DNA of 64,000 nucleotides from the IMG/VR virus record IMGVR_UViG_3300045988_129623. One strand, 5' to 3'. The stretch is from a virus. Below the pieces are notes generated by a model. It had not been told where the DNA came from and did not search any database. It saw nothing but the letters and a program-made list of their open reading frames with translations. Of this stretch, positions 25,882-36,675 are shown one piece after another. How positions within the stretch are numbered: the stretch's first letter is position 1; every line of letters begins with the position of its first letter. Both the position numbers and the translations under genes were made by a program.

Positions 25882-26157
25882 ATGGGTAGATCGACAGAGT
25901 ACTACAGGACTCATCCCGAAGCCAGGAAGAAAAAGGCTAAAAAGGACAAGGAGATAAATGCCAGACCGGAACAGAAAGCCAAACGCCGAGAGCTTGGTCG
26001 TAAAAACTACGAAACGGACAAGAAGAAGGGTAAGGGCTGGAGAAAAGGAAAGGATTGTTCTCATACCAAGAATGGTCTTAGGTATAAATCAGTAAAAGCT
26101 AATAGGGGATCCAAATCGGATACGAAAGGTGACAAAAATGCAAGATCTCCGAAATAA
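25882..26157 (+). CDS. small highly basic Lys/Arg-rich protein (91 aa)
   Basis: ORF track; composition. Confidence 0.6.
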   Translation: MGRSTEYYRTHPEARKKKAKKDKEINARPEQKAKRRELGRKNYETDKKKGKGWRKGKDCSHTKNGLRYKSVKANRGSKSDTKGDKNARSPK

Positions 26158-26442
26158 TATACAAAAAGACAAATAGAATTTTACTTTTTTGTATATCCAG
26201 TTTTACTGGCCGGTTATTAGCCTAAGTGCTTCGAGCACTACGTTATCGGAGAATGTATAGTTACCCTGGAGTGTTTATCCAAGCTCCAGGCTCTAAGGCA
26301 GGTGATTAAACAGTATTTGTATTTGGATACAGTGTTGCTTGTAAGAAACCTCTGAATAACATTGGCGATGGGTACTAACAGATTGAAATATATCTGACTT
26401 ACTACGAATAGTAGTTATTAATTAAAAATTAGTTTGTAACAA
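26158..26442 (+). ncRNA. candidate omega-RNA, the guide RNA scaffold of the IscB OMEGA system. It is a 285-nt non-coding leader directly upstream of iscB with several strong hairpins
   Basis: No ORF is present. The hairpins are at 26157-26196 (12-bp stem), 26225-26239 (AGTGCT/AGCACT) and 26265-26290 (CCTGGAG/CTCCAGG). This is the position and size expected for IscB omega-RNAs. Confidence 0.5.
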
Positions 26443-27702
26443 ATGGTGTACGTACAAGACATAGATGGTAAACCTTTGATGCCAACAACAAGGCATGGTA
26501 AGGTTAGAAGACTGCTTAAAGACAAAAAGGCAGTTGTTGTCAACTTATGTCCGTTTACCATCAAATTAATGTACGTCACATCTGATTACAAACAGGAAAT
26601 TGTGTTAGGCGTTGATGCTGGAACTAAACATGTTGGTCTATCAGCTACGACGAAAAGCAAGGAGCTTTACGCAAGTGAAGTTATTCTGAGAAATGATATC
26701 ATTAATTTGCTTTCGACAAGAAGAGAATTGAGGAAAGCGAGAAGGAATAGGATAAGGTATAGAAAGCCGAGATTTAATAACAGAATAAAGTCGAAGCGCC
26801 AAGGATGGATAGCTCCATCTGTTTGTCAAAAAATTGATTCCCATATTAAGGTTGTCAGTTTTATACATTCTATCCTTCCTGTTTCAAGATTAATTATAGA
26901 AACTTCTCAGTTTGATACTCAAAAGATTAAGAATCCTGATATATTGGGAAAAGAATACCAGCAAGGCGAGCAACTTGGATTTTGGAATGTTCGAGAATAC
27001 ATACTTTTTCGTGATGGTCACAAATGCCAGCATTGTAAGGGAAAATCGAAAAATCCTATTCTTAATATCCACCATATCGAATCGCGAAAGACTGGTGGAG
27101 ATTCACCTTCTAATTTGATTACTTTATGTGAAACTTGCCATAAGGAGTACCATAAGGGGAATATTAAATTGAAGGTAAAAAGAGGAACTTCACTTCGTGA
27201 TGCGGCCGCGATGGGAATCATGAAATGGAAGTTATTCGATAAATTGAAGTCATTATATCCAAACGTTAGTATGACATTTGGATATATAACGAAACATAAT
27301 CGGATAAAACATAGAATCGAAAAGTCCCATGTTTCTGATGCATTTGTTATCTCAGAGAATTTTAAAGCAAAAAGGCTTGGATATCATTTCAAGATGAAAC
27401 TCACACGGAGACATAATAGGCAAATTCATAAAATGAAGATGCAAAAGGGAGGGATCAAAAGAATGAATCAATCACCATTTAGGGTATTTGGGTTTAGACT
27501 ATTTGATAAAGTAATGTTTTATGGTGAAAAACGATTTATTTACGCAAGAAGACTTTCTGGTAGTTTTAAAATAAAAGATATAGATGGGGAAAATGAGAAA
27601 AATATATCATATAAAAAATTAAAATATATAGGACATGGATTGACTTCTATTGAAGTAGATCAATCATATGGATATAAAGCAAATACACATAATAACGAAT
27701 AA
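26443..27702 (+). CDS. iscB: IscB RNA-guided nuclease (OMEGA system). It has an N-terminal PLMP domain, RuvC-I, an Arg-rich bridge helix, RuvC-II, an HNH domain and RuvC-III
   Basis: GKPLMPTTRHGKVRRLL (PLMP motif); LGVDAGTKHVGLS (RuvC-I aspartate); RRELRKARRNRIRYRKPRFNNR (bridge helix); LIIETSQF (RuvC-II glutamate); CQHCKG...NIHHIESRKTGG...LITLCETCH (HNH); SHVSDAF (RuvC-III aspartate). Length is 419 aa. Confidence 0.9.
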   Translation: MVYVQDIDGKPLMPTTRHGKVRRLLKDKKAVVVNLCPFTIKLMYVTSDYKQEIVLGVDAGTKHVGLSATTKSKELYASEVILRNDIINLLSTRRELRKARRNRIRYRKPRFNNRIKSKRQGWIAPSVCQKIDSHIKVVSFIHSILPVSRLIIETSQFDTQKIKNPDILGKEYQQGEQLGFWNVREYILFRDGHKCQHCKGKSKNPILNIHHIESRKTGGDSPSNLITLCETCHKEYHKGNIKLKVKRGTSLRDAAAMGIMKWKLFDKLKSLYPNVSMTFGYITKHNRIKHRIEKSHVSDAFVISENFKAKRLGYHFKMKLTRRHNRQIHKMKMQKGGIKRMNQSPFRVFGFRLFDKVMFYGEKRFIYARRLSGSFKIKDIDGENEKNISYKKLKYIGHGLTSIEVDQSYGYKANTHNNE

Positions 27703-27707
27703 TCACA

Positions 27708-28844
27708 ATGGAGTTTGGAACATTCGATAACAAAACGACAAAAGTTAACATCCGGAATATTTTCAAAACCTCCAAACAGGTTATGGAGGAGGCGTATGAG
27801 AATATCTTAAAATACAGGCGGGGAGAGCTTATCCCCGCTAAAACCGGATACGATTATATTGATGAGGCTTTGCTTGGAGGTATTTTCCCTCAGCATGCTA
27901 TTGCCATAGGAGCCCGGCCATCTGTAGGTAAATCGTATGTGGCCCAAAAGATATTGGAAAATGTGATGAATCCGATGATCAACCCGCAAGCAGAAGATTA
28001 TTTTCTTGTTAATTGCGAGTTCGAAATGAATCCTCAAGATCTTCTTCTTCGCAGAATGAGCCAGGATATGAAAAAGCGGGCTCCTGAAATATTAAGAAGG
28101 CAAGATTCTAATACAGTAGAAGAGATGAGGCTGTTTGAAATCCTTCAAGGTGAAATCAGAAATAATATAATATACATCGATGCTCCGTGTACGGTAAAAG
28201 AGTTTGAGGCGGCTGTGTATCATATAGCTACCAAACATAAAGACAAACGTCTTATAATATTTAAAGTCGATCATATTGCTTTGATAAAAAGAATGGGATT
28301 AGATCCTAAGTCGGCTATAGATGATTTGGTGGCGGTTATGAACGAAGCTAAATTAGTATATAAAAACATATTTTTCCTCATCATATCCCAATTCAACAGA
28401 GAAATAGAAGGAAGGATAAAAAGCCCACAAGAGCAGCCTCCGCGTCTTTCTGATTTTTACCAGTCTGATACGCTGGGTCAGTTATGTACGTTAATGATAG
28501 GCTTGCACAATCCTCGTAGGTACGGGCTGGATAAGTATATGATATTTGGGAAAGATTGGTATCAGACTCTTGATAGGTTTAAAACTGAAAACAAAACATC
28601 ATTCAGGACAGCCGGACTGGTGTTTCATCATATACTGAAGGTAAGGCAAGTTAGTATGGAAGAGCTTACTAATACAATCCACCCAGAGATACTGCCGGGA
28701 CATGGATGGATGTACGGGGAGGGCGGGACGAAGTTCGTGAACCCCAACCAGCCGCCGACGCCGCCCAAGCTCTATACTGTGGAAGACGTTACGAACAATC
28801 AAGATCAAGAACAAGAGACAAAGGAAGAACAGTCATTGTATTAA
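27708..28844 (+). CDS. DnaB-like replicative helicase (RecA-fold ATPase domain)
   Basis: Walker A IGARPSVGKS; Walker B-like IIFKVDHIAL. Confidence 0.65.
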   Translation: MEFGTFDNKTTKVNIRNIFKTSKQVMEEAYENILKYRRGELIPAKTGYDYIDEALLGGIFPQHAIAIGARPSVGKSYVAQKILENVMNPMINPQAEDYFLVNCEFEMNPQDLLLRRMSQDMKKRAPEILRRQDSNTVEEMRLFEILQGEIRNNIIYIDAPCTVKEFEAAVYHIATKHKDKRLIIFKVDHIALIKRMGLDPKSAIDDLVAVMNEAKLVYKNIFFLIISQFNREIEGRIKSPQEQPPRLSDFYQSDTLGQLCTLMIGLHNPRRYGLDKYMIFGKDWYQTLDRFKTENKTSFRTAGLVFHHILKVRQVSMEELTNTIHPEILPGHGWMYGEGGTKFVNPNQPPTPPKLYTVEDVTNNQDQEQETKEEQSLY

Positions 28845-29689: not shown

Positions 29690-30403
29690 ATGTACATCAA
29701 TTTCAGACAACTTGCAGCATCAGACATGACTCCTAATGATCTGGCTAATCTTCTTGCTATAAGACAGAAGGATACGGTTATGATCGAAGCCATGCTGGAA
29801 AAAGATGCTGGGAGGTATATAGAGCTTGGCCTGGTTGAGAAATTAAAATCAGGCGTGATGAGATTGACCAACAAAGGAACGTCTTTTGTGAATTATATAG
29901 AGACACCGGAGATGACAGACGAGGTTCTGGAAACGTTGAAGATTATGATAGGAATGTACGAATCGTATTCAAAAGACATAGGTGTCAGCAGAAAAGAAGC
30001 GGAATCCAGGTTGTGTTGGTTTATGGGTAACACCTCATTCAAGAAAGAGGTCATACTTCAGGTAACGGAATCTTATATAGCAGAGTCAGGAGATTATACA
30101 ATGAGCTTATGTAACTTCATATGGAAACCGCCTTCTCAGGCCTTTTCGGTCCATATGAACCTTAAAAATTCAAAGCTCTTTGACTTAATAGCTGAAAAAT
30201 TTAAGATCGCTACCGAGCCTTATTTGGAGTCTAAGAAGAATAAGGAAATGGATTGGTTGTTTGCCGTATCTAAATTGCCTACGCCGCCGGCTAAAGGCAA
30301 TCCGGATTATTTGTTTACCGGAAGTTCTGAAACAGACAAAGAGCGATTGAAAAACATAAAAACGTATTTATTTAACAAAATTAGAAAGCAATGGAAAAAG
30401 TAA
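29690..30403 (+). CDS. hypothetical protein (237 aa)
   Basis: ORF track. Confidence 0.75.
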   Translation: MYINFRQLAASDMTPNDLANLLAIRQKDTVMIEAMLEKDAGRYIELGLVEKLKSGVMRLTNKGTSFVNYIETPEMTDEVLETLKIMIGMYESYSKDIGVSRKEAESRLCWFMGNTSFKKEVILQVTESYIAESGDYTMSLCNFIWKPPSQAFSVHMNLKNSKLFDLIAEKFKIATEPYLESKKNKEMDWLFAVSKLPTPPAKGNPDYLFTGSSETDKERLKNIKTYLFNKIRKQWKK

Positions 30404-30642
30404 GAATCAGAAAGATAATAGAGGATATAATTATTACTCAGTTTCTTAATTCGGAAATAGATATAGTTCATGAAGAAGATGTGACGTTTAAAGAACTTGG
30501 ATTAGATTCTATCGATCAAATTGAACTGGAAATGATGGTGGAACAAAAATTCAATATTGTTATTAATGATTATGATATGGAGACCATCAAAGATATGACT
30601 GATCTTGTTTACAAAATAATAACAGAAGGATATGGGAAGTGA
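30391..30642 (+). CDS. acyl carrier protein-like (83 aa)
   Basis: ACP phosphopantetheine-attachment motif LGLDSIDQIELEMMVEQKF. The size and acidic character fit ACP. Confidence 0.65.
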   Translation: MEKVRIRKIIEDIIITQFLNSEIDIVHEEDVTFKELGLDSIDQIELEMMVEQKFNIVINDYDMETIKDMTDLVYKIITEGYGK

Positions 30643-31126
30643 CATAATTTTATGCATGGCTTTAATAGCGTCATTTGCTTTTGTTATACAGTTTTTGTTG
30701 TCGATATTAGGATCTGATCTGGATACGGATATTGATATTGATGATGCTTCTGATTTAAGTATGTCTTTGTCGGACATCATATCATTCAAGGGCATAACAC
30801 ATTTTATTCTTGGATATAGCTGGACTACCTACTTTTCGGGTTCCCATTTAGTAGGGGTTGTGATAGGGTCGTTTTTCTTTATCGTTTTGTTTTACGTATA
30901 TAAGTTACTTCTTAAGTTAAAGCAAGAAATGGTGTACGAATGTCCGGAAGATTTAAATGGCAGAGAGGTGGAGATAGTGTTTAGATCAGGGAAGAATCAT
31001 TATATGGTAAATATTTCGAAAAATGGAAGACAGGAGCAAATGAGAGTAAGATGCTTGTCTGGAAAAACCTACAAAAACGGTGACAAGGTGAATATAAAAT
31101 ATGAAGAAGGAGAATTAAGTATCTAA
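30632..31126 (+). CDS. NfeD-like membrane protein (short form, YuaF-like), the partner of SPFH/flotillin. The start may be the ATG near 30656
   Basis: N-terminal TM helices plus a C-terminal soluble beta-rich domain; located immediately upstream of the flotillin gene. Confidence 0.6.
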   Translation: MGSDIILCMALIASFAFVIQFLLSILGSDLDTDIDIDDASDLSMSLSDIISFKGITHFILGYSWTTYFSGSHLVGVVIGSFFFIVLFYVYKLLLKLKQEMVYECPEDLNGREVEIVFRSGKNHYMVNISKNGRQEQMRVRCLSGKTYKNGDKVNIKYEEGELSI

Positions 31127-31157
31127 TTTTTTTATCAACAATTAAATTTTAAAAGTT

Positions 31158-32858
31158 ATGACAACAATCATGTACGTGTCAGCTATCTTAGCTGTAGTGA
31201 TTATTTTGACAATCATCGGAGTCTTATCAAGGTATCGTAGATGTAAACCTAATCAGGTCTTGGTCGTTTACGGTAAGACAGGTGGGGAAAAGAAATCGGC
31301 GAAATTATATCATGGTGGAGCGGCATTTGTCTTGCCTATTATTCAAAGCTATGATGTTTTGTCAATGGAGCCTATGCAAATAGATTGCAAGCTTACCGGT
31401 GCTTTGTCATCTCAGAATATTAGAGTAGATGTACCTACGACCATTACAGTAGCTATCAGTACAAATCCCGAAATCATGCAAAATGCGGCAGAAAGACTTT
31501 TGGGGATGGATACCGAATCTACTGAAAATCTTATTACGGACATCGTTTACGGTCAGATGCGTTTGATTATTGCTGAAATGACAATCGAAAAACTTAATTC
31601 TGACAGGGATGAGTTTTTGGATAAGGCGAGAAAGAACATTGATAACGAGCTTAACAAGTTAGGTCTTTACCTCCTGAACATCAACATCAGTGACATCAGA
31701 GACGAAGCCGGTTATATTATGAACCTTGGTAAGGAAGCTGAAAGTAGGGCTCTGAACGAGGCACAGGCTAATATCGAAGAACAGGAGAAGCTGGGTGCTA
31801 TTAAAATTGCTGTACAGCAGAAGGAAAAAGAAACGGCTGTGGCTAATACCAAAAAAGAACAAGAGATTCAAATTGCTTGTACTGAAAAAGAAAAGGAGAC
31901 AATAGTAGCTGAAACGAAGAAAGAAAAAGAAATAGCTTTAGCTTTAACCGATAAAGAGAAACAGATCGGTGTAGCTCAAGCAGATAGAGACAGGGCTGCG
32001 GTTATCGCAAAAACTTTAACCGACAAGGAATCGGCGATCGTAAGATCTAAGGCAGAACTTGAAGTAAATAAAGCCGAGGCTGAAAGAATGGAAGAAGTCG
32101 GAAAGAATAAGGCTGAAGCTGACAAGGAAGCAGCTATAGCAATACAAGACTCTGAAGCTCAGATTAAGAAGGCTGAGGCTGAGAAAAATGCGTCTATAGG
32201 ATACAACAATGCCCAGAAGGAGGTTGCTGTATCAGTATCAGAACTACAGATCATCAAAGCTCAATCAGAGAAGAAGGCCGGAGAAGAAAAAGTTAAATCG
32301 GAAGCGGCTGTAAAAACAGCAAAAGAGCTTGCCGACAAAGAAGTGGAAGAAGCTAAGGCTAAGAAAGTTCAGGCTGCGCTTAAGGCTGAAAAGATTGTGC
32401 CGGCTGAAACCCAGAAGGAAGAGGCTATCTTACAAGCTGATGCCGAGGCCGAGAAGATCAAACGCCGGGCTGAGGCTGAGGCAGCAGCACATTTGGCAAA
32501 AGCTGAGGCAGAGGCAAAAGCTATTCAGATGAAGCTGGAGGCAGAAGCCGAAGGTAAGAAAAAGTCGTTAATGGCAGAAGCCGACGGATTTAAGGCCATG
32601 GTGGAAGCAGCAGAATCCAATCCTCAGATCGCCATCCAGTACAAGATGGTTAATCAGTGGAAAGAAATTGCCGGAGAACAGGTTAAGGCATTTGAGCACA
32701 TTAACCTCGGAAATATCACAGTATTTGACGGCGGTCAGAACAGTACCGGTAATTTCCTTAACAATGTTGTCAAGACCGTCGCTCCGGCATTGGGAGTCAT
32801 TGATCAGCTTCCGATTGCAGATACTTTAAAGAAGCTAAAAGGAGATGACAAAAAATAA
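31158..32858 (+). CDS. flotillin-like SPFH/band-7 protein (FloT/YuaG-like), 566 aa
   Basis: N-terminal TM helix; SPFH domain; long Ala/Glu-rich coiled coil with AEAEA repeats; flotillin-type C-terminus (AEAEAKAIQMKLEAEAEGKKKSLMAEADGFKAMVEAAESNPQIAIQYKMVNQW). Confidence 0.85.
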   Translation: MTTIMYVSAILAVVIILTIIGVLSRYRRCKPNQVLVVYGKTGGEKKSAKLYHGGAAFVLPIIQSYDVLSMEPMQIDCKLTGALSSQNIRVDVPTTITVAISTNPEIMQNAAERLLGMDTESTENLITDIVYGQMRLIIAEMTIEKLNSDRDEFLDKARKNIDNELNKLGLYLLNINISDIRDEAGYIMNLGKEAESRALNEAQANIEEQEKLGAIKIAVQQKEKETAVANTKKEQEIQIACTEKEKETIVAETKKEKEIALALTDKEKQIGVAQADRDRAAVIAKTLTDKESAIVRSKAELEVNKAEAERMEEVGKNKAEADKEAAIAIQDSEAQIKKAEAEKNASIGYNNAQKEVAVSVSELQIIKAQSEKKAGEEKVKSEAAVKTAKELADKEVEEAKAKKVQAALKAEKIVPAETQKEEAILQADAEAEKIKRRAEAEAAAHLAKAEAEAKAIQMKLEAEAEGKKKSLMAEADGFKAMVEAAESNPQIAIQYKMVNQWKEIAGEQVKAFEHINLGNITVFDGGQNSTGNFLNNVVKTVAPALGVIDQLPIADTLKKLKGDDKK

Positions 32859-33011
32859 ATACAATGACCCAAGGTTACACTTGGGCCTAATTGAAGAAAT
32901 AAAAGCAGCATTCATAGATTTCCTGCCGGCAGGAACAGTGCTTTACTAATTACGATATTTTTAACATGGATTTTGGACAAGATTTAGAACCAGAAGAACT
33001 GACCAAGCATT

Positions 33012-33371
33012 ATGATCAGTATTATGGAATTGATTTTGAAACAGAAGAAGAGGAGGATGAAGAGTATGACTGACGAGGAATTTGTATTGGATAATAAGAA
33101 AAGGGTTGTTGTAAGAAAAAGAATATCTTATTTAAGCAAAGGGGATAAAGTGTGGATTGTGTCTTCCGACGGGTATCTGCTACACACGGACGTAGTTAGA
33201 GCCGAACGCGGACGGTCTTATGTGGATATAGACGGCATCCTGTATTGGAAGCGAGGATTAGATGGCAAGCATCGTAATCGTAATAACTACATGCAGTTTG
33301 CCATGACACCAGAAGACGGTAAGAAGTATGTCGTATATTACCCGGAAGGATTTAAAGACAATGACTTATGA
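33012..33371 (+). CDS. hypothetical protein. The start is possibly at the internal ATG near 33063, which is preceded by a GAGGAGG-like motif
   Basis: ORF track. Confidence 0.6.
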   Translation: MISIMELILKQKKRRMKSMTDEEFVLDNKKRVVVRKRISYLSKGDKVWIVSSDGYLLHTDVVRAERGRSYVDIDGILYWKRGLDGKHRNRNNYMQFAMTPEDGKKYVVYYPEGFKDNDL

Positions 33372-34387
33372 TGGTCCCGGAAACGCATTTGCTATATAAG
33401 GAGTTTAATGGTGTGAAACGTCTTGCCATATCTTATTCCCAGATAGATACGTTTCTTACCTGTCCAATGAAATGGTATAAGACTTACGTAGAGGGCAAAA
33501 GGTCTACGGAAAAACAAGAAGCTACGTCTTATGGTACGGTTATCCATAAGACACTGGAATACTTTTTTAAGAACGGAAGACAGCCTTCTGGTAAAGACCT
33601 TGGAGAAGCGATAAGTTACTATGCTTACCAAGAAGACATACCTTGGCAATCACCGGAAAATATGATGATGGCCATGAAGCAATCTGGGGAACTTCTTGCT
33701 TGGATTGTGGATCTGTTCAAAAAAGACGGCAATAGGTTTATGATAGCTGATAGTGATCTTAATCCCTGTGAAAAACTTATCAGACACGGCGCTATAGTTG
33801 GAGTCGAAGAAGATTTTGTGCTGCCGTATCGTCTTCCTAAGCCTGTTGATATAAATGGTGACGTTCATACACATGTGTACATAGTAGGATCGGTAGACCT
33901 TCATCTGGCTATAAAAAGCAAGAACGTAGTTCACCATTATGTCATAGATTGGAAATCAGGAAATAAGGTTTTTGATTCTAAGAAATTGGAAACGAATTTA
34001 CAGCATCCTATATATTCATTTTACATCTATAGAAAATATGGTGGAGTTTTGCCAGATATGAACATCTATTTCTTTACCAGAACCAGGCAGTACCAAAAGG
34101 TTAAGGTAGATGAGGAACGTAAAACAAAATCTATAGAGATGCTAAATGACACTTTATCCAAAATGTATGATTTTGAAGATAATAGTGTAAAAACATTTCA
34201 AGCGTACATCCAGGGAGCAGAAGGAGCCAGGTATAGCAAGCGGCGCGCCACCCTAAGTCAGCCTGTTCCGCAAAACAAGCTACCCTGCCCGTCAGCACTG
34301 TGTTATTATTGTGACTTTGGATTACATAACAAAAACGAATGCCCTTTCTCTTCAGATTGGGATCCGTCTAAAAAGATAAAACGATGA
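33368..34387 (+). CDS. PD-(D/E)XK nuclease (RecB/Cas4-like) with a C-terminal Cys cluster
   Basis: SYSQIDTFLTCPMKWY N-terminal motif; VIDWKSGNK (D-x-K); C-terminal CPSALCYYCDF...CPF cysteines. Confidence 0.8.
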   Translation: MMVPETHLLYKEFNGVKRLAISYSQIDTFLTCPMKWYKTYVEGKRSTEKQEATSYGTVIHKTLEYFFKNGRQPSGKDLGEAISYYAYQEDIPWQSPENMMMAMKQSGELLAWIVDLFKKDGNRFMIADSDLNPCEKLIRHGAIVGVEEDFVLPYRLPKPVDINGDVHTHVYIVGSVDLHLAIKSKNVVHHYVIDWKSGNKVFDSKKLETNLQHPIYSFYIYRKYGGVLPDMNIYFFTRTRQYQKVKVDEERKTKSIEMLNDTLSKMYDFEDNSVKTFQAYIQGAEGARYSKRRATLSQPVPQNKLPCPSALCYYCDFGLHNKNECPFSSDWDPSKKIKR

Positions 34388-34886: not shown

Positions 34887-35264
34887 ATGAAAAAAGAAGT
34901 TACAATCAAGGAAGATATGGCTGCGTTTTATAAAAATGCAGGAAAGGAACTATGGATTTATAACGGACTTTTCAGAAACAAGGTATTGTCTATAAAAAAA
35001 GATAAAGCCATTATCATGTGTGAAACCAATGCTGAATATGCTGTACTGATAGAAGATAATCAGTTTATTACCGTAGCAAAAAACATGGATTATGATTACT
35101 GCTGCGCATTCACATTAGGTAATGCCGAGGCTTATGGAGATCGTATGGGCATATCGTGCAGTGTATGCTTGCTTGAAGATAACGAAGATAAAGCAAGGGA
35201 GATGTTGAAAGAGGCGATAATAGAACTTTCAAAAAATAATATAATAGATTGTGATGGGCTTTGA
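34887..35264 (+). CDS. hypothetical protein (125 aa)
   Basis: ORF track. Confidence 0.65.
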   Translation: MKKEVTIKEDMAAFYKNAGKELWIYNGLFRNKVLSIKKDKAIIMCETNAEYAVLIEDNQFITVAKNMDYDYCCAFTLGNAEAYGDRMGISCSVCLLEDNEDKAREMLKEAIIELSKNNIIDCDGL

Positions 35265-36675
35265 ACTTAGACCTTACCAAAAAGAGGCAGTAGATGCCGG
35301 GCTTAAGTTTCTTACAGGAAGATCTAAGAAGCCTGGCATAATCGTAGCCCCATGCGGATGTGGAAAGAGCCTTCTGATATCCAAGATAGCACATGAAATA
35401 AATAGACCGACATTAGTATTACAGCCCTCAAAAGAGATTCTGGAGCAGAATTATGCGAAGGCCGTATCATTCGGTTCTGAACCTACTATATATTCTGCTT
35501 CATGTGGTATAAAGGAGCTGTCGGCTATGACTTATGCAACATTAAAGAGCATAAAGAAAGATGTAGCGAGGTTGAAGGATATAGGGATAGATACCTTATT
35601 GATAGACGAATGTCATTCAGGATATTCTCCTGAAGAAGGTTCTGAATTTATGGAGTTTATGAACGGGTTTCCAGAGGCGAAGGTGCTGGGCTTCACCGCC
35701 ACTCCCTGCCGCCTCCGAACCTACAGTTCCATGCTGGAAGGAAACTACAGCAAGCTCAATATGCTGACGAAAGACGAGCATAACTTCTTCAAGAAAATAG
35801 TTCATGTGACTCAAATACAAGAACTAACTTCTCAAGGGTTTTGGTGTCCACTTAAGTACGAACGATGGTCGTTTGATGAATCGGCTCTGATGTTAAACAG
35901 TACCGGAGCCGAATACACCAACGAATCTATTAAAGAAAGTATTGTACGAAACGGCTTAAACAACTCTATCTACAAGCGCCTTCTTCAACTTATGAACGAG
36001 CGTAAAGCCATTTTGGTTTGCATGGATTCTATCGAATCATGTAATAGAATATCAGAGTTCATGAATGCCAGGATGGGAGCCATAACCGGTGTCGTAACAT
36101 CGCTAACAACCAAAAAGAAAAGAGAGCAAATTATATCAGATTTCAAAGAAGGTAAGTTGAAAGTGGTTTTTAATTATTCAACGCTTGCTACCGGATTTGA
36201 TTTTCCTGAACTTGATTGCGTGATGTTTGGGCGACCAACTTTCTCATATTCAACTTATTACCAAATATTAGGCCGCGCCGTCCGCATCCATCCTGACAAG
36301 AAAGAGGCGCTGATAGTTGATTGCTGCGACAACATGAGGCGTTTCGGTCGGATAGAAGACCTGACAATTGAGCAATTCCCTTCTAAGGGCTGGTGTATGT
36401 TTGCCGGCGATCAACTTCTGTCTAATATAAGGATGGGTGATATTATTACCAAAGACGAGATCCTTCGTCGGGCAGCCTCGCTTAAATCTGTGAATGGAGA
36501 TGGTAGGAGAGAAGACGATCTTGACAGTATAATAATGTGGTTTGGAAAATATGAAGGAATTAGATTCAAGGACATACCGGTGTCGTATTTTAGGTTCTTG
36601 GCTGAGAATATGGTAGTAAAACCAGGAGATAGAAAAGAAAAGGTTATAGAATATTATAATAGGATAAAAGCATGA
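35251..36675 (+). CDS. superfamily-2 DNA helicase (XPB/ERCC3/UvsW-like; type III restriction res-subunit fold)
   Basis: RPYQ Q-motif; Walker A APCGCGKS; DEAH-box variant IDECHS; motif III TATP; helicase C-terminal domain. Confidence 0.9.
   Translation: MMGFELRPYQKEAVDAGLKFLTGRSKKPGIIVAPCGCGKSLLISKIAHEINRPTLVLQPSKEILEQNYAKAVSFGSEPTIYSASCGIKELSAMTYATLKSIKKDVARLKDIGIDTLLIDECHSGYSPEEGSEFMEFMNGFPEAKVLGFTATPCRLRTYSSMLEGNYSKLNMLTKDEHNFFKKIVHVTQIQELTSQGFWCPLKYERWSFDESALMLNSTGAEYTNESIKESIVRNGLNNSIYKRLLQLMNERKAILVCMDSIESCNRISEFMNARMGAITGVVTSLTTKKKREQIISDFKEGKLKVVFNYSTLATGFDFPELDCVMFGRPTFSYSTYYQILGRAVRIHPDKKEALIVDCCDNMRRFGRIEDLTIEQFPSKGWCMFAGDQLLSNIRMGDIITKDEILRRAASLKSVNGDGRREDDLDSIIMWFGKYEGIRFKDIPVSYFRFLAENMVVKPGDRKEKVIEYYNRIKA

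Follow-up and report, generated by a model that had tools for sequence, protein, structure and literature searches.

The 64,000-nucleotide stretch of DNA analyzed here (the window) comes from the IMG/VR virus record IMGVR_UViG_3300045988_129623 and carries three consecutive genes, which encode a small protein of the acyl carrier protein (ACP) family, an NfeD-like membrane protein and a flotillin (Table 1). The last two make up an operon of a kind known from bacteria, carried here by a phage and, although annotated in GenBank, undiscussed. An earlier note on this DNA had described the three open reading frames (ORFs) as consecutive and as lying within a block of replication genes; both statements are borne out. 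All three ORFs are on the + strand, and the genes that flank them encode a DnaB-like helicase on one side and, on the other, a PD-(D/E)XK exonuclease and a ResIII/SNF2 helicase. As read from the sequence, the start of the ACP gene shares 13 nt with the end of an upstream 237-aa ORF, and its end shares 11 nt with the start of the NfeD-like gene, which is separated from the flotillin gene by a 31-nt gap. Scans for promoters and terminators gave results at chance level.

The region is 95.9% nucleotide-identical to GenBank OR575929.1, a 151-kb human-gut phage that the record names csAssE-Sib and the associated paper crAssE-Sib. Judged by its sequence, the window belongs to the epsilon crAss-like phages, within the proposed genus Epsilonunovirus, for which Bacteroides, Parabacteroides or Porphyromonas were predicted as hosts (PMC11054128). 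In OR575929 the three genes are labeled "acyl carrier protein", "transmembrane protein" and "flotillin family protein", so the middle gene was not recognized as NfeD-like, and the flotillin and the ACP go unmentioned in the paper on crAssE-Sib (PMC11054128). A literature search found no paper that treats flotillin together with crAss-like phages, and none that treats Bacteroides together with both flotillin and NfeD. New here are the origin of the pair from a host operon, the NfeD-like identity of the middle gene, and the polymorphisms in gene presence and at the ACP attachment site.

Such genes are uncommon in phages, as had been supposed: flotillin-like proteins are matched in 11 of 50,697 phage records (several of them short unannotated fragments) and the NfeD-like protein in two, and the trio occurs in OR575929 only. 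The phage itself is very common in metagenomes, where a single ACP allele is found on at least 1,000 contigs and dozens of viral contigs of 76-155 kb are available. The survey of related phages that the earlier note had suggested revealed a sister phage species (flotillin 82% identical) in which the order 237-aa ORF (g237), ACP, NfeD-like protein, flotillin is preserved.

Table 1. Positions of the genes, protein regions and variable segments discussed in the text, numbered along the window.
Feature	Position	Strand	Basis or remark
DnaB-like helicase	27708-28844		flanking gene
237-aa ORF	29690-30403		directly upstream of ACP
ACP-like gene, 83 aa	30391-30642	+	PF00550, PHROG 5934, PDB ACP matches
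ACP residues 39-51	30505-30543	+	Ser40 and helix II, substitution hot-spot in natural alleles
NfeD-like membrane protein gene, 164 aa	30632-31126	+	AF2 fold, helices, synteny
Acidic loop DLDTDIDIDDASD, NfeD-like aa 29-42, between first two helices	30716-30757	+	conserved DxDxD
Segment missing in commonest flotillin-less alleles	31129-32960		removes flotillin and short flanks, NfeD-like gene intact
Flotillin gene, 566 aa	31158-32858	+	Band_7 and Flot above Pfam cut-offs
Flotillin N-terminal hydrophobic anchor, aa 1-28	31158-31241	+	Kyte-Doolittle
SPFH/Band_7 domain, aa 30-211	31245-31790	+	PF01145
A/E/K/Q-rich helical (coiled-coil wall) region, aa 201-500, length-polymorphic	31758-32657	+	composition
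Flotillin C-terminal domain, aa 450-559	32505-32834	+	PF15975
PD-(D/E)XK exonuclease	33368-34387		flanking gene
ResIII/SNF2 helicase	35251-36675		flanking gene

The flotillin and its NfeD-like partner

The third gene had been read as a flotillin with a membrane anchor, an SPFH domain, a coiled coil and a flotillin C-terminus, and each of these parts is recovered. The SPFH/Band_7 domain (PF01145) is matched at E 7.6e-26 (91.7 bits against a cut-off of 23.6) and the Flot C-terminal domain (PF15975) at E 2.1e-9 (38 bits against 27). Additionally, the cryo-EM structures of human flotillin-2 and flotillin-1 (9bq2) match at E 7e-23 and 5e-19, respectively, and 9l3g also matches. The N-terminus is hydrophobic enough to act as an anchor, with a Kyte-Doolittle mean of 2.83 in a 19-aa window, and the fraction of A, E, K and Q residues reaches 0.52-0.72 across the helical region.

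This helical region varies in length. Among flotillin alleles that are 96-100% identical, about 40 different in-frame deletions are found within it, 15 of which are multiples of 11 aa, and the underlying DNA contains degenerate repeats at multiples of 33 nt, consistent with deletion steps of 11 aa. If flotillins form cages, the length of the helical wall differs among phage strains. An assembly artifact was considered as the source of these length variants and rejected, given that the repeats are short and degenerate (60-85% identity), that different assemblers were involved and that a 1,746-bp deletion (see below) lies within collinear DNA; the variants were thus judged real.

The middle gene had been called a short-form NfeD-like membrane protein, a claim that stands on its fold, its helices and its gene context and fails on the direct profile search, since the NfeD profile PF01957 does not match the window protein. 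A profile made from a 4-sequence alignment likewise matched nothing in the PDB. An exhaustive profile search with the middle protein led to a family of 442 representatives; in the 74-member family alignment used for modeling, one sequence is matched by Pfam NfeD, at 6e-5. The AlphaFold2 (AF2) model built from these 74 sequences reaches a mean predicted local distance difference test (pLDDT) score of 88.5 and replaced a single-sequence model that was uninformative (pLDDT 53). It consists of three N-terminal helices (aa 2-27, 46-69 and 72-95), as in NfeD-like proteins, with two segments above the hydropathy threshold, followed by a C-terminal OB-type beta domain at about aa 105-164 that resembles solved NfeD domains. 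YbbJ from the QmcA-YbbJ complex (8z5g_B) aligns with the middle protein over 131 residues, at about 11% identity, and a viral relative, 35% identical, bears the UniProt name "NfeD-like C-terminal domain-containing protein". Moreover, in the window its gene adjoins a gene of the SPFH family, and so do the genes of relatives at 36% identity and those at 79 of the 80 Bacteroidales loci. On the predicted fold, the architecture and the synteny, we accept the middle gene as "NfeD-like" despite the failed profile test.

A further feature of the model is the acidic loop between the first two helices, its sole low-confidence stretch. Within the 74-member family D31 and D33 are almost invariant, and the S-F-K-G-x-x-H-F motif that follows them is conserved. 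The loop may be a cation-binding or regulatory element.

Host relatives, constraint and natural loss

A scan of bacterial genomes, with one genome per species and 80 Bacteroidales loci examined, places the closest cellular relatives of the pair in the order to which the predicted hosts belong. Flotillins of Bacteroides, Parabacteroides, Prevotella, Phocaeicola and their relatives are 62-67% identical to the phage flotillin, and in 79 of the 80 loci a homolog of the NfeD-like protein (30-41% identity) is encoded directly upstream, the one exception being a locus without upstream sequence. The statement that NfeD-flotillin pairs are a conserved bacterial operon is therefore confirmed for the likely host order. 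More distant relatives of the partner, at 36% identity, also directly precede Band_7 genes, indicating that the conserved unit is the two-gene pair. None of the 80 host loci has an ACP homolog within 5 kb, and the ACP is thus a phage-side neighbor and not part of the borrowed operon. The host flotillins are for the most part 84-97% identical to one another (about 73% for Phocaeicola), and in a neighbor-joining tree the two phage species group together as sister to the entire host clade, a position that speaks for a capture long ago or for rapid evolution of the copy, and against a recent acquisition.

The pair is maintained under selection. Among intact alleles within the species, the ratio of nonsynonymous to synonymous diversity (piN/piS) is 0.042 for the flotillin and 0.071 for the NfeD-like gene, with neighboring genes at 0.004-0.08 and the ACP at 0.38. 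Between the two phage species, nonsynonymous divergence (pN) is 0.11 for the flotillin against 0.09-0.15 for the flanking replication genes, synonymous sites being saturated, and both the NfeD-like gene (0.23) and the ACP (0.41) evolve faster than the flotillin. Intact alleles of the NfeD-like and flotillin genes are hence under strong purifying selection.

This constraint coexists with frequent loss. In a survey of 78 informative IMG/VR contigs, selected through the upstream 237-aa gene and hence unbiased with respect to the flotillin, the flotillin is missing in 25, and one further contig has lost more than 1 kb from within the gene. These 26 contigs show no fewer than 10 types of junction. 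The two commonest, 31129/32960 and 31131/32957, excise precisely the flotillin, spare the NfeD-like gene and account for 18 of the 78 contigs; other junctions are 30441/32830, 30926/32445, 30653/32498, 31847/32863, 31005/33023, 30431/32958, 31128/33023 and 31131/33023. Two contigs end inside the flanking exonuclease gene, which all the others carry at full length. Additionally, many of the "homologs" that databases give for the middle protein join its N-terminus to a flotillin C-terminus; one such fusion, checked in the DNA of the 41-kb syntenic contig L169, results from an in-frame 1,746-bp deletion with the junction 30874/32621.

Loss of the flotillin in a third of the genomes, together with frameshifts or nonsense mutations in others, is what would be expected if the cassette were a functionless, host-derived passenger in decay. 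Such a passenger would not show the low piN/piS of both genes among intact alleles, nor a between-species pN as low as that of replication genes where synonymous sites are saturated, nor the synteny preserved in the second species, and because of these selection statistics we regard decay as highly improbable. Collectively, the evidence indicates that the pair is functional where present, yet is an optional accessory and not a core phage function.

The ACP-like gene and the surrounding genes

The first gene had been described as ACP-like, with an LGLDSIDQIEL-type attachment motif, and this description proves correct. The protein passes the Pfam PP-binding profile PF00550 (E 9.4e-8, 32.6 bits against a cut-off of 20.8), matches PHROG 5934, "acyl carrier protein", at E 1.7e-10, and is matched by 89 solved ACP chains in the PDB at E 0.01 or better, the best of which, 1vku, aligns its FKELGFDSID with the phage FKELGLDSID. 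Ser40 (codon 30508-30510) lies in the PP-binding domain within GLDSID, at the place of the conserved D-S-(L/I) serine at the start of helix II. No NCBIfam ACP model attains its cut-off (the best reaches 37 of the required 71 bits), and the protein is thus an ACP-family member and not an AcpP equivalog. In a homolog search, the best 120 matches are all alleles of the same phage.

The earlier note had also proposed looking for a phosphopantetheinyl transferase (PPTase) elsewhere in the genome. Neither a PPTase (PF01648) nor an acyltransferase, synthase or other lipid-enzyme family was found in a Pfam scan of the 56 mid-size ORFs of the window, and none is annotated in the 151-kb relative OR575929. 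The 237-aa ORF upstream of the ACP was considered as a hidden PPTase and rejected, as Pfam, PDB and PHROGs lend it no support (best E 0.16-0.2). If the ACP is modified at all, the modification would have to come from the host AcpS.

Natural variation in the ACP is concentrated at the attachment site. Across 108 database alleles, 35 alternative residue states fall on the 13 positions 39-51, versus 34 on the other 70 positions. In 26 of the 108 alleles Ser40 has given way to F, P, Y or A, and E45V/T/K and L46P are also recurrent. Among 149 IMG/VR copies Ser40 is unchanged throughout, and seven of these copies carry nonsense mutations; ACP nonsense mutations fall at codons 22, 43 and 52. Many independent samples and assemblers yielded S40F and S40P alleles; the flanks of these alleles are up to 5.8% diverged, and for some of them the nearest neighbor is a wild-type genome; given this spread over diverged backgrounds, they are recurrent or recombined and not a single clone. 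A diversity-generating retroelement was considered as the cause of the hot-spot and rejected: there is no template-repeat-like second copy of window positions 30471-30570 in the window or in the related genome (matches are 13 nt or less), and the changed bases are not adenine-specific.

These observations bear on the proposal, made in the earlier note, that the three genes work as one functional module. In such a module an acyl or lipid group would be borne by the ACP and either passed on to the NfeD-flotillin microdomain or organized by it. The overlaps of the ACP gene with both of its neighbors suggest co-translation, its adjacency to the pair is preserved in the second phage species, and its canonical GLDSID serine is invariant in the IMG/VR copies. 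However, the absence of an ACP from all host loci, an ACP piN/piS of 0.38 versus 0.04-0.07 for the pair and the lack of partner enzymes among the scanned ORFs and in the relative's annotation all speak for a separate gene, and Ser40 is substituted in genomes that still have an intact flotillin. Moreover, the ACP is intact in 23 of the 25 flotillin-less genomes, and six genomes with a truncated ACP retain a flotillin ORF of 562-597 aa, so that ACP loss and flotillin loss are independent of each other. Because of this independence the three-gene module is disfavored, and we consider it distinctly unlikely. The hot-spot at Ser40 and helix II likewise argues against a simple model of a carrier protein feeding the flotillin domain.

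The same hot-spot leaves room for a reading driven by conflict. In such a reading the Ser40 and helix-II changes, the ACP nonsense mutations and the flotillin deletions would be escape events from a Bacteroidales immunity system, the ACP (as a mimic with a partner-recognition helix) and/or the flotillin cage being sensed in some hosts and advantageous in others. Both this antagonistic selection and the sensing that it presupposes are unlikely.

As for the surrounding genes, the 237-aa ORF shows strong conservation, with a piN/piS of 0.043 and a pN of 0.14 to the sister species, and no homolog of it is detectable in Pfam, PHROGs, NCBIfam or PDB. Several neighboring segments differ between related genomes. 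Just upstream of the DnaB-like gene, positions 26443-27702 hold a 419-aa ORF with RRXRR and HNH endonuclease domains; a segment of about 1.6 kb containing it (about 26143-27758) is missing from L169, and the alignment with OR575929 stops at window position 27763, with no alignment upstream of that point. This segment is probably a mobile homing or IscB-like element. In the relative L259, an OrfB_IS605/TnpB gene lies between the DnaB-like gene and a 200-aa ORF, and in L169 the ResIII/SNF2 helicase gene (L169 6882-8480) has an insertion of about 1 kb with a Hom_end_hint (intein/homing-endonuclease) domain, absent from the window gene. In about 10 of 80 related contigs, an insertion of 200-360 bp at window positions 33023-33025 or so breaks the start of a 119-aa ORF (33012-33371) and constitutes a second small presence/absence polymorphism beside that of the flotillin. 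Among the mid-size ORFs of the window, for which the Pfam scan reports family counts and not which ORF bears each domain, one has a Tad2-like (Thoeris anti-defense 2) domain (E 1.2e-10), and others match Lar restriction alleviation, C-5 DNA methylase (two) and BRO-N/KilAC anti-repressor domains.

Possible roles of the cassette and known systems

The explanation that we favor, and hold to be reasonably likely, is that the NfeD-like/flotillin operon originated in Bacteroidales and serves an epsilon crAss-like phage as a working but dispensable accessory, which would supplement or reshape the membrane scaffold of its host. Remodeling of host membrane microdomains, which the earlier note had suggested, is plausible given what SPFH cages do. 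The gene identities, the relationship to the host operon, the constraint and the dispensability constitute its established part. The cassette lies on the same strand among replication genes and is therefore probably expressed with them. By analogy with solved SPFH assemblies (the flotillin-1/2 cage and QmcA-YbbJ), the phage flotillin would oligomerize during infection into a dome that covers the host inner membrane on its cytoplasmic side, with the N-terminal hydrophobic segment as anchor, and the NfeD-like partner would sit in the enclosed membrane patch, touching the flotillin via its OB-type domain. The phage cassette would probably add to, replace or re-shape the host's own flotillin scaffold, and the most likely benefit would be to keep or reorganize inner-membrane function while an infection persists or stays productive for a long time. 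If this benefit varied with host or conditions, the presence/absence polymorphism would be explained. The ACP-like gene would be a separate, co-transcribed neighbor, and joint work with the pair is not part of this explanation.

Two other roles have to be weighed against membrane maintenance. The cassette could be a device for superinfection exclusion or inter-phage competition that blocks DNA entry or membrane steps of rivals and varies with competitor pressure. The predicted membrane location of its proteins agrees with such a role, the presence/absence polymorphism of a constrained gene is typical for phage accessory genes, and the Tad2-like protein means that one conflict gene or more lies in this part of the genome. 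However, no PADLOC defense model matches any of the three proteins, the searches made returned no link of flotillin/NfeD pairs to exclusion, and the host already owns the pair, so that an extra copy would not obviously exclude anything; exclusion is therefore unlikely.

Alternatively, the phage flotillin could interfere with the host scaffold, either by dominant-negative co-assembly or by an HflK/C-like modulation of a membrane protease that affects persistence or a lysogeny-type decision. FtsH and lambda lysogeny are controlled by HflK/C, and at 64-70% identity to the host flotillin mixed oligomers are conceivable. Repressor and anti-repressor genes, reported for the genus together with the suggestion that a temperate or persistent lifestyle is possible (PMC11054128), point the same way. 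Nevertheless, the protein is of the flotillin type and not of the HflK/C type, as it has a Flot C-terminal domain; the phage-borne NfeD partner suggests a self-contained assembly, and the tolerated length variants of the coiled coil fit homo-oligomers better than mixed cages. With no protease link found either, interference is improbable.

Several results weigh against the favored explanation of a scaffold-reshaping accessory operon. The middle protein has no match in Pfam, NCBIfam or PHROG, even at E 10; a search with its family profile finds YuaF (2k14) with an E no better than 0.53; and a Foldseek search of the PDB with its model returned generic OB folds, at E 0.03 or weaker, without singling out NfeD. 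The flotillin reaches 144.5 bits against the 700-bit cut-off of the FloT equivalog NF058507 in NCBIfam, a score too low to equate it functionally with B. subtilis FloT; a Bacteroides flotillin homolog likewise falls short, at 152.8 bits. The frequency of flotillin loss means that the cassette is dispensable for propagation in many settings, and the results do not discriminate between membrane maintenance, exclusion and another benefit.

Bacterial flotillins and their NfeD partners are widespread, and their physiological role is still debated. Here a very abundant human-gut phage family keeps a diverged, strongly constrained copy of the host operon, and coexisting flotillin-plus and flotillin-minus phages offer a ready-made genetic contrast for the role of a flotillin cage in an infected cell. 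The same contrast bears on why crAss-like phages persist with their hosts. The corrected reading is that the borrowed unit is a two-gene pair, with the ACP outside it and subject to an unusual variation of its own at the attachment serine.

Among known systems, B. subtilis yuaF(nfeD2)-floT and E. coli yqiJ-yqiK differ from the phage pair in that the phage flotillin attains only 144 bits under the FloT model, in that they belong to a cellular stress regulon whereas the present pair has a phage setting, and in that the phage middle protein has no Pfam NfeD match. E. coli QmcA-YbbJ (PDB 8z5g) involves a stomatin-type SPFH protein, unlike the phage flotillin, and the identity of YbbJ to the middle protein is low, as noted above. 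For the ACP, PHROG 5934 and g153 of Yersinia phage fHe-Yen9-04 likewise represent small PP-binding proteins with a DS(I/L)D serine in large phages without obvious partner enzymes, but g153 shares 43% identity over 49 residues only; unlike these, the ACP gene described here overlaps a membrane-protein gene and has a hot-spot at the attachment serine and helix II. A further likeness is to the Bacteroidales pair itself: in B. xylanisolvens XB1A (locus L036, 4471-4968 and 4989-6641) the gene order, the short gap and the domain architecture are those of the phage, and the flotillin and the 165-aa partner are 64% and 35% identical to the phage proteins, respectively. In contrast to the host pairs, the phage copy is a diverged sister lineage that lies in a replication block, is polymorphic for presence and has an ACP gene in front, which the hosts lack.

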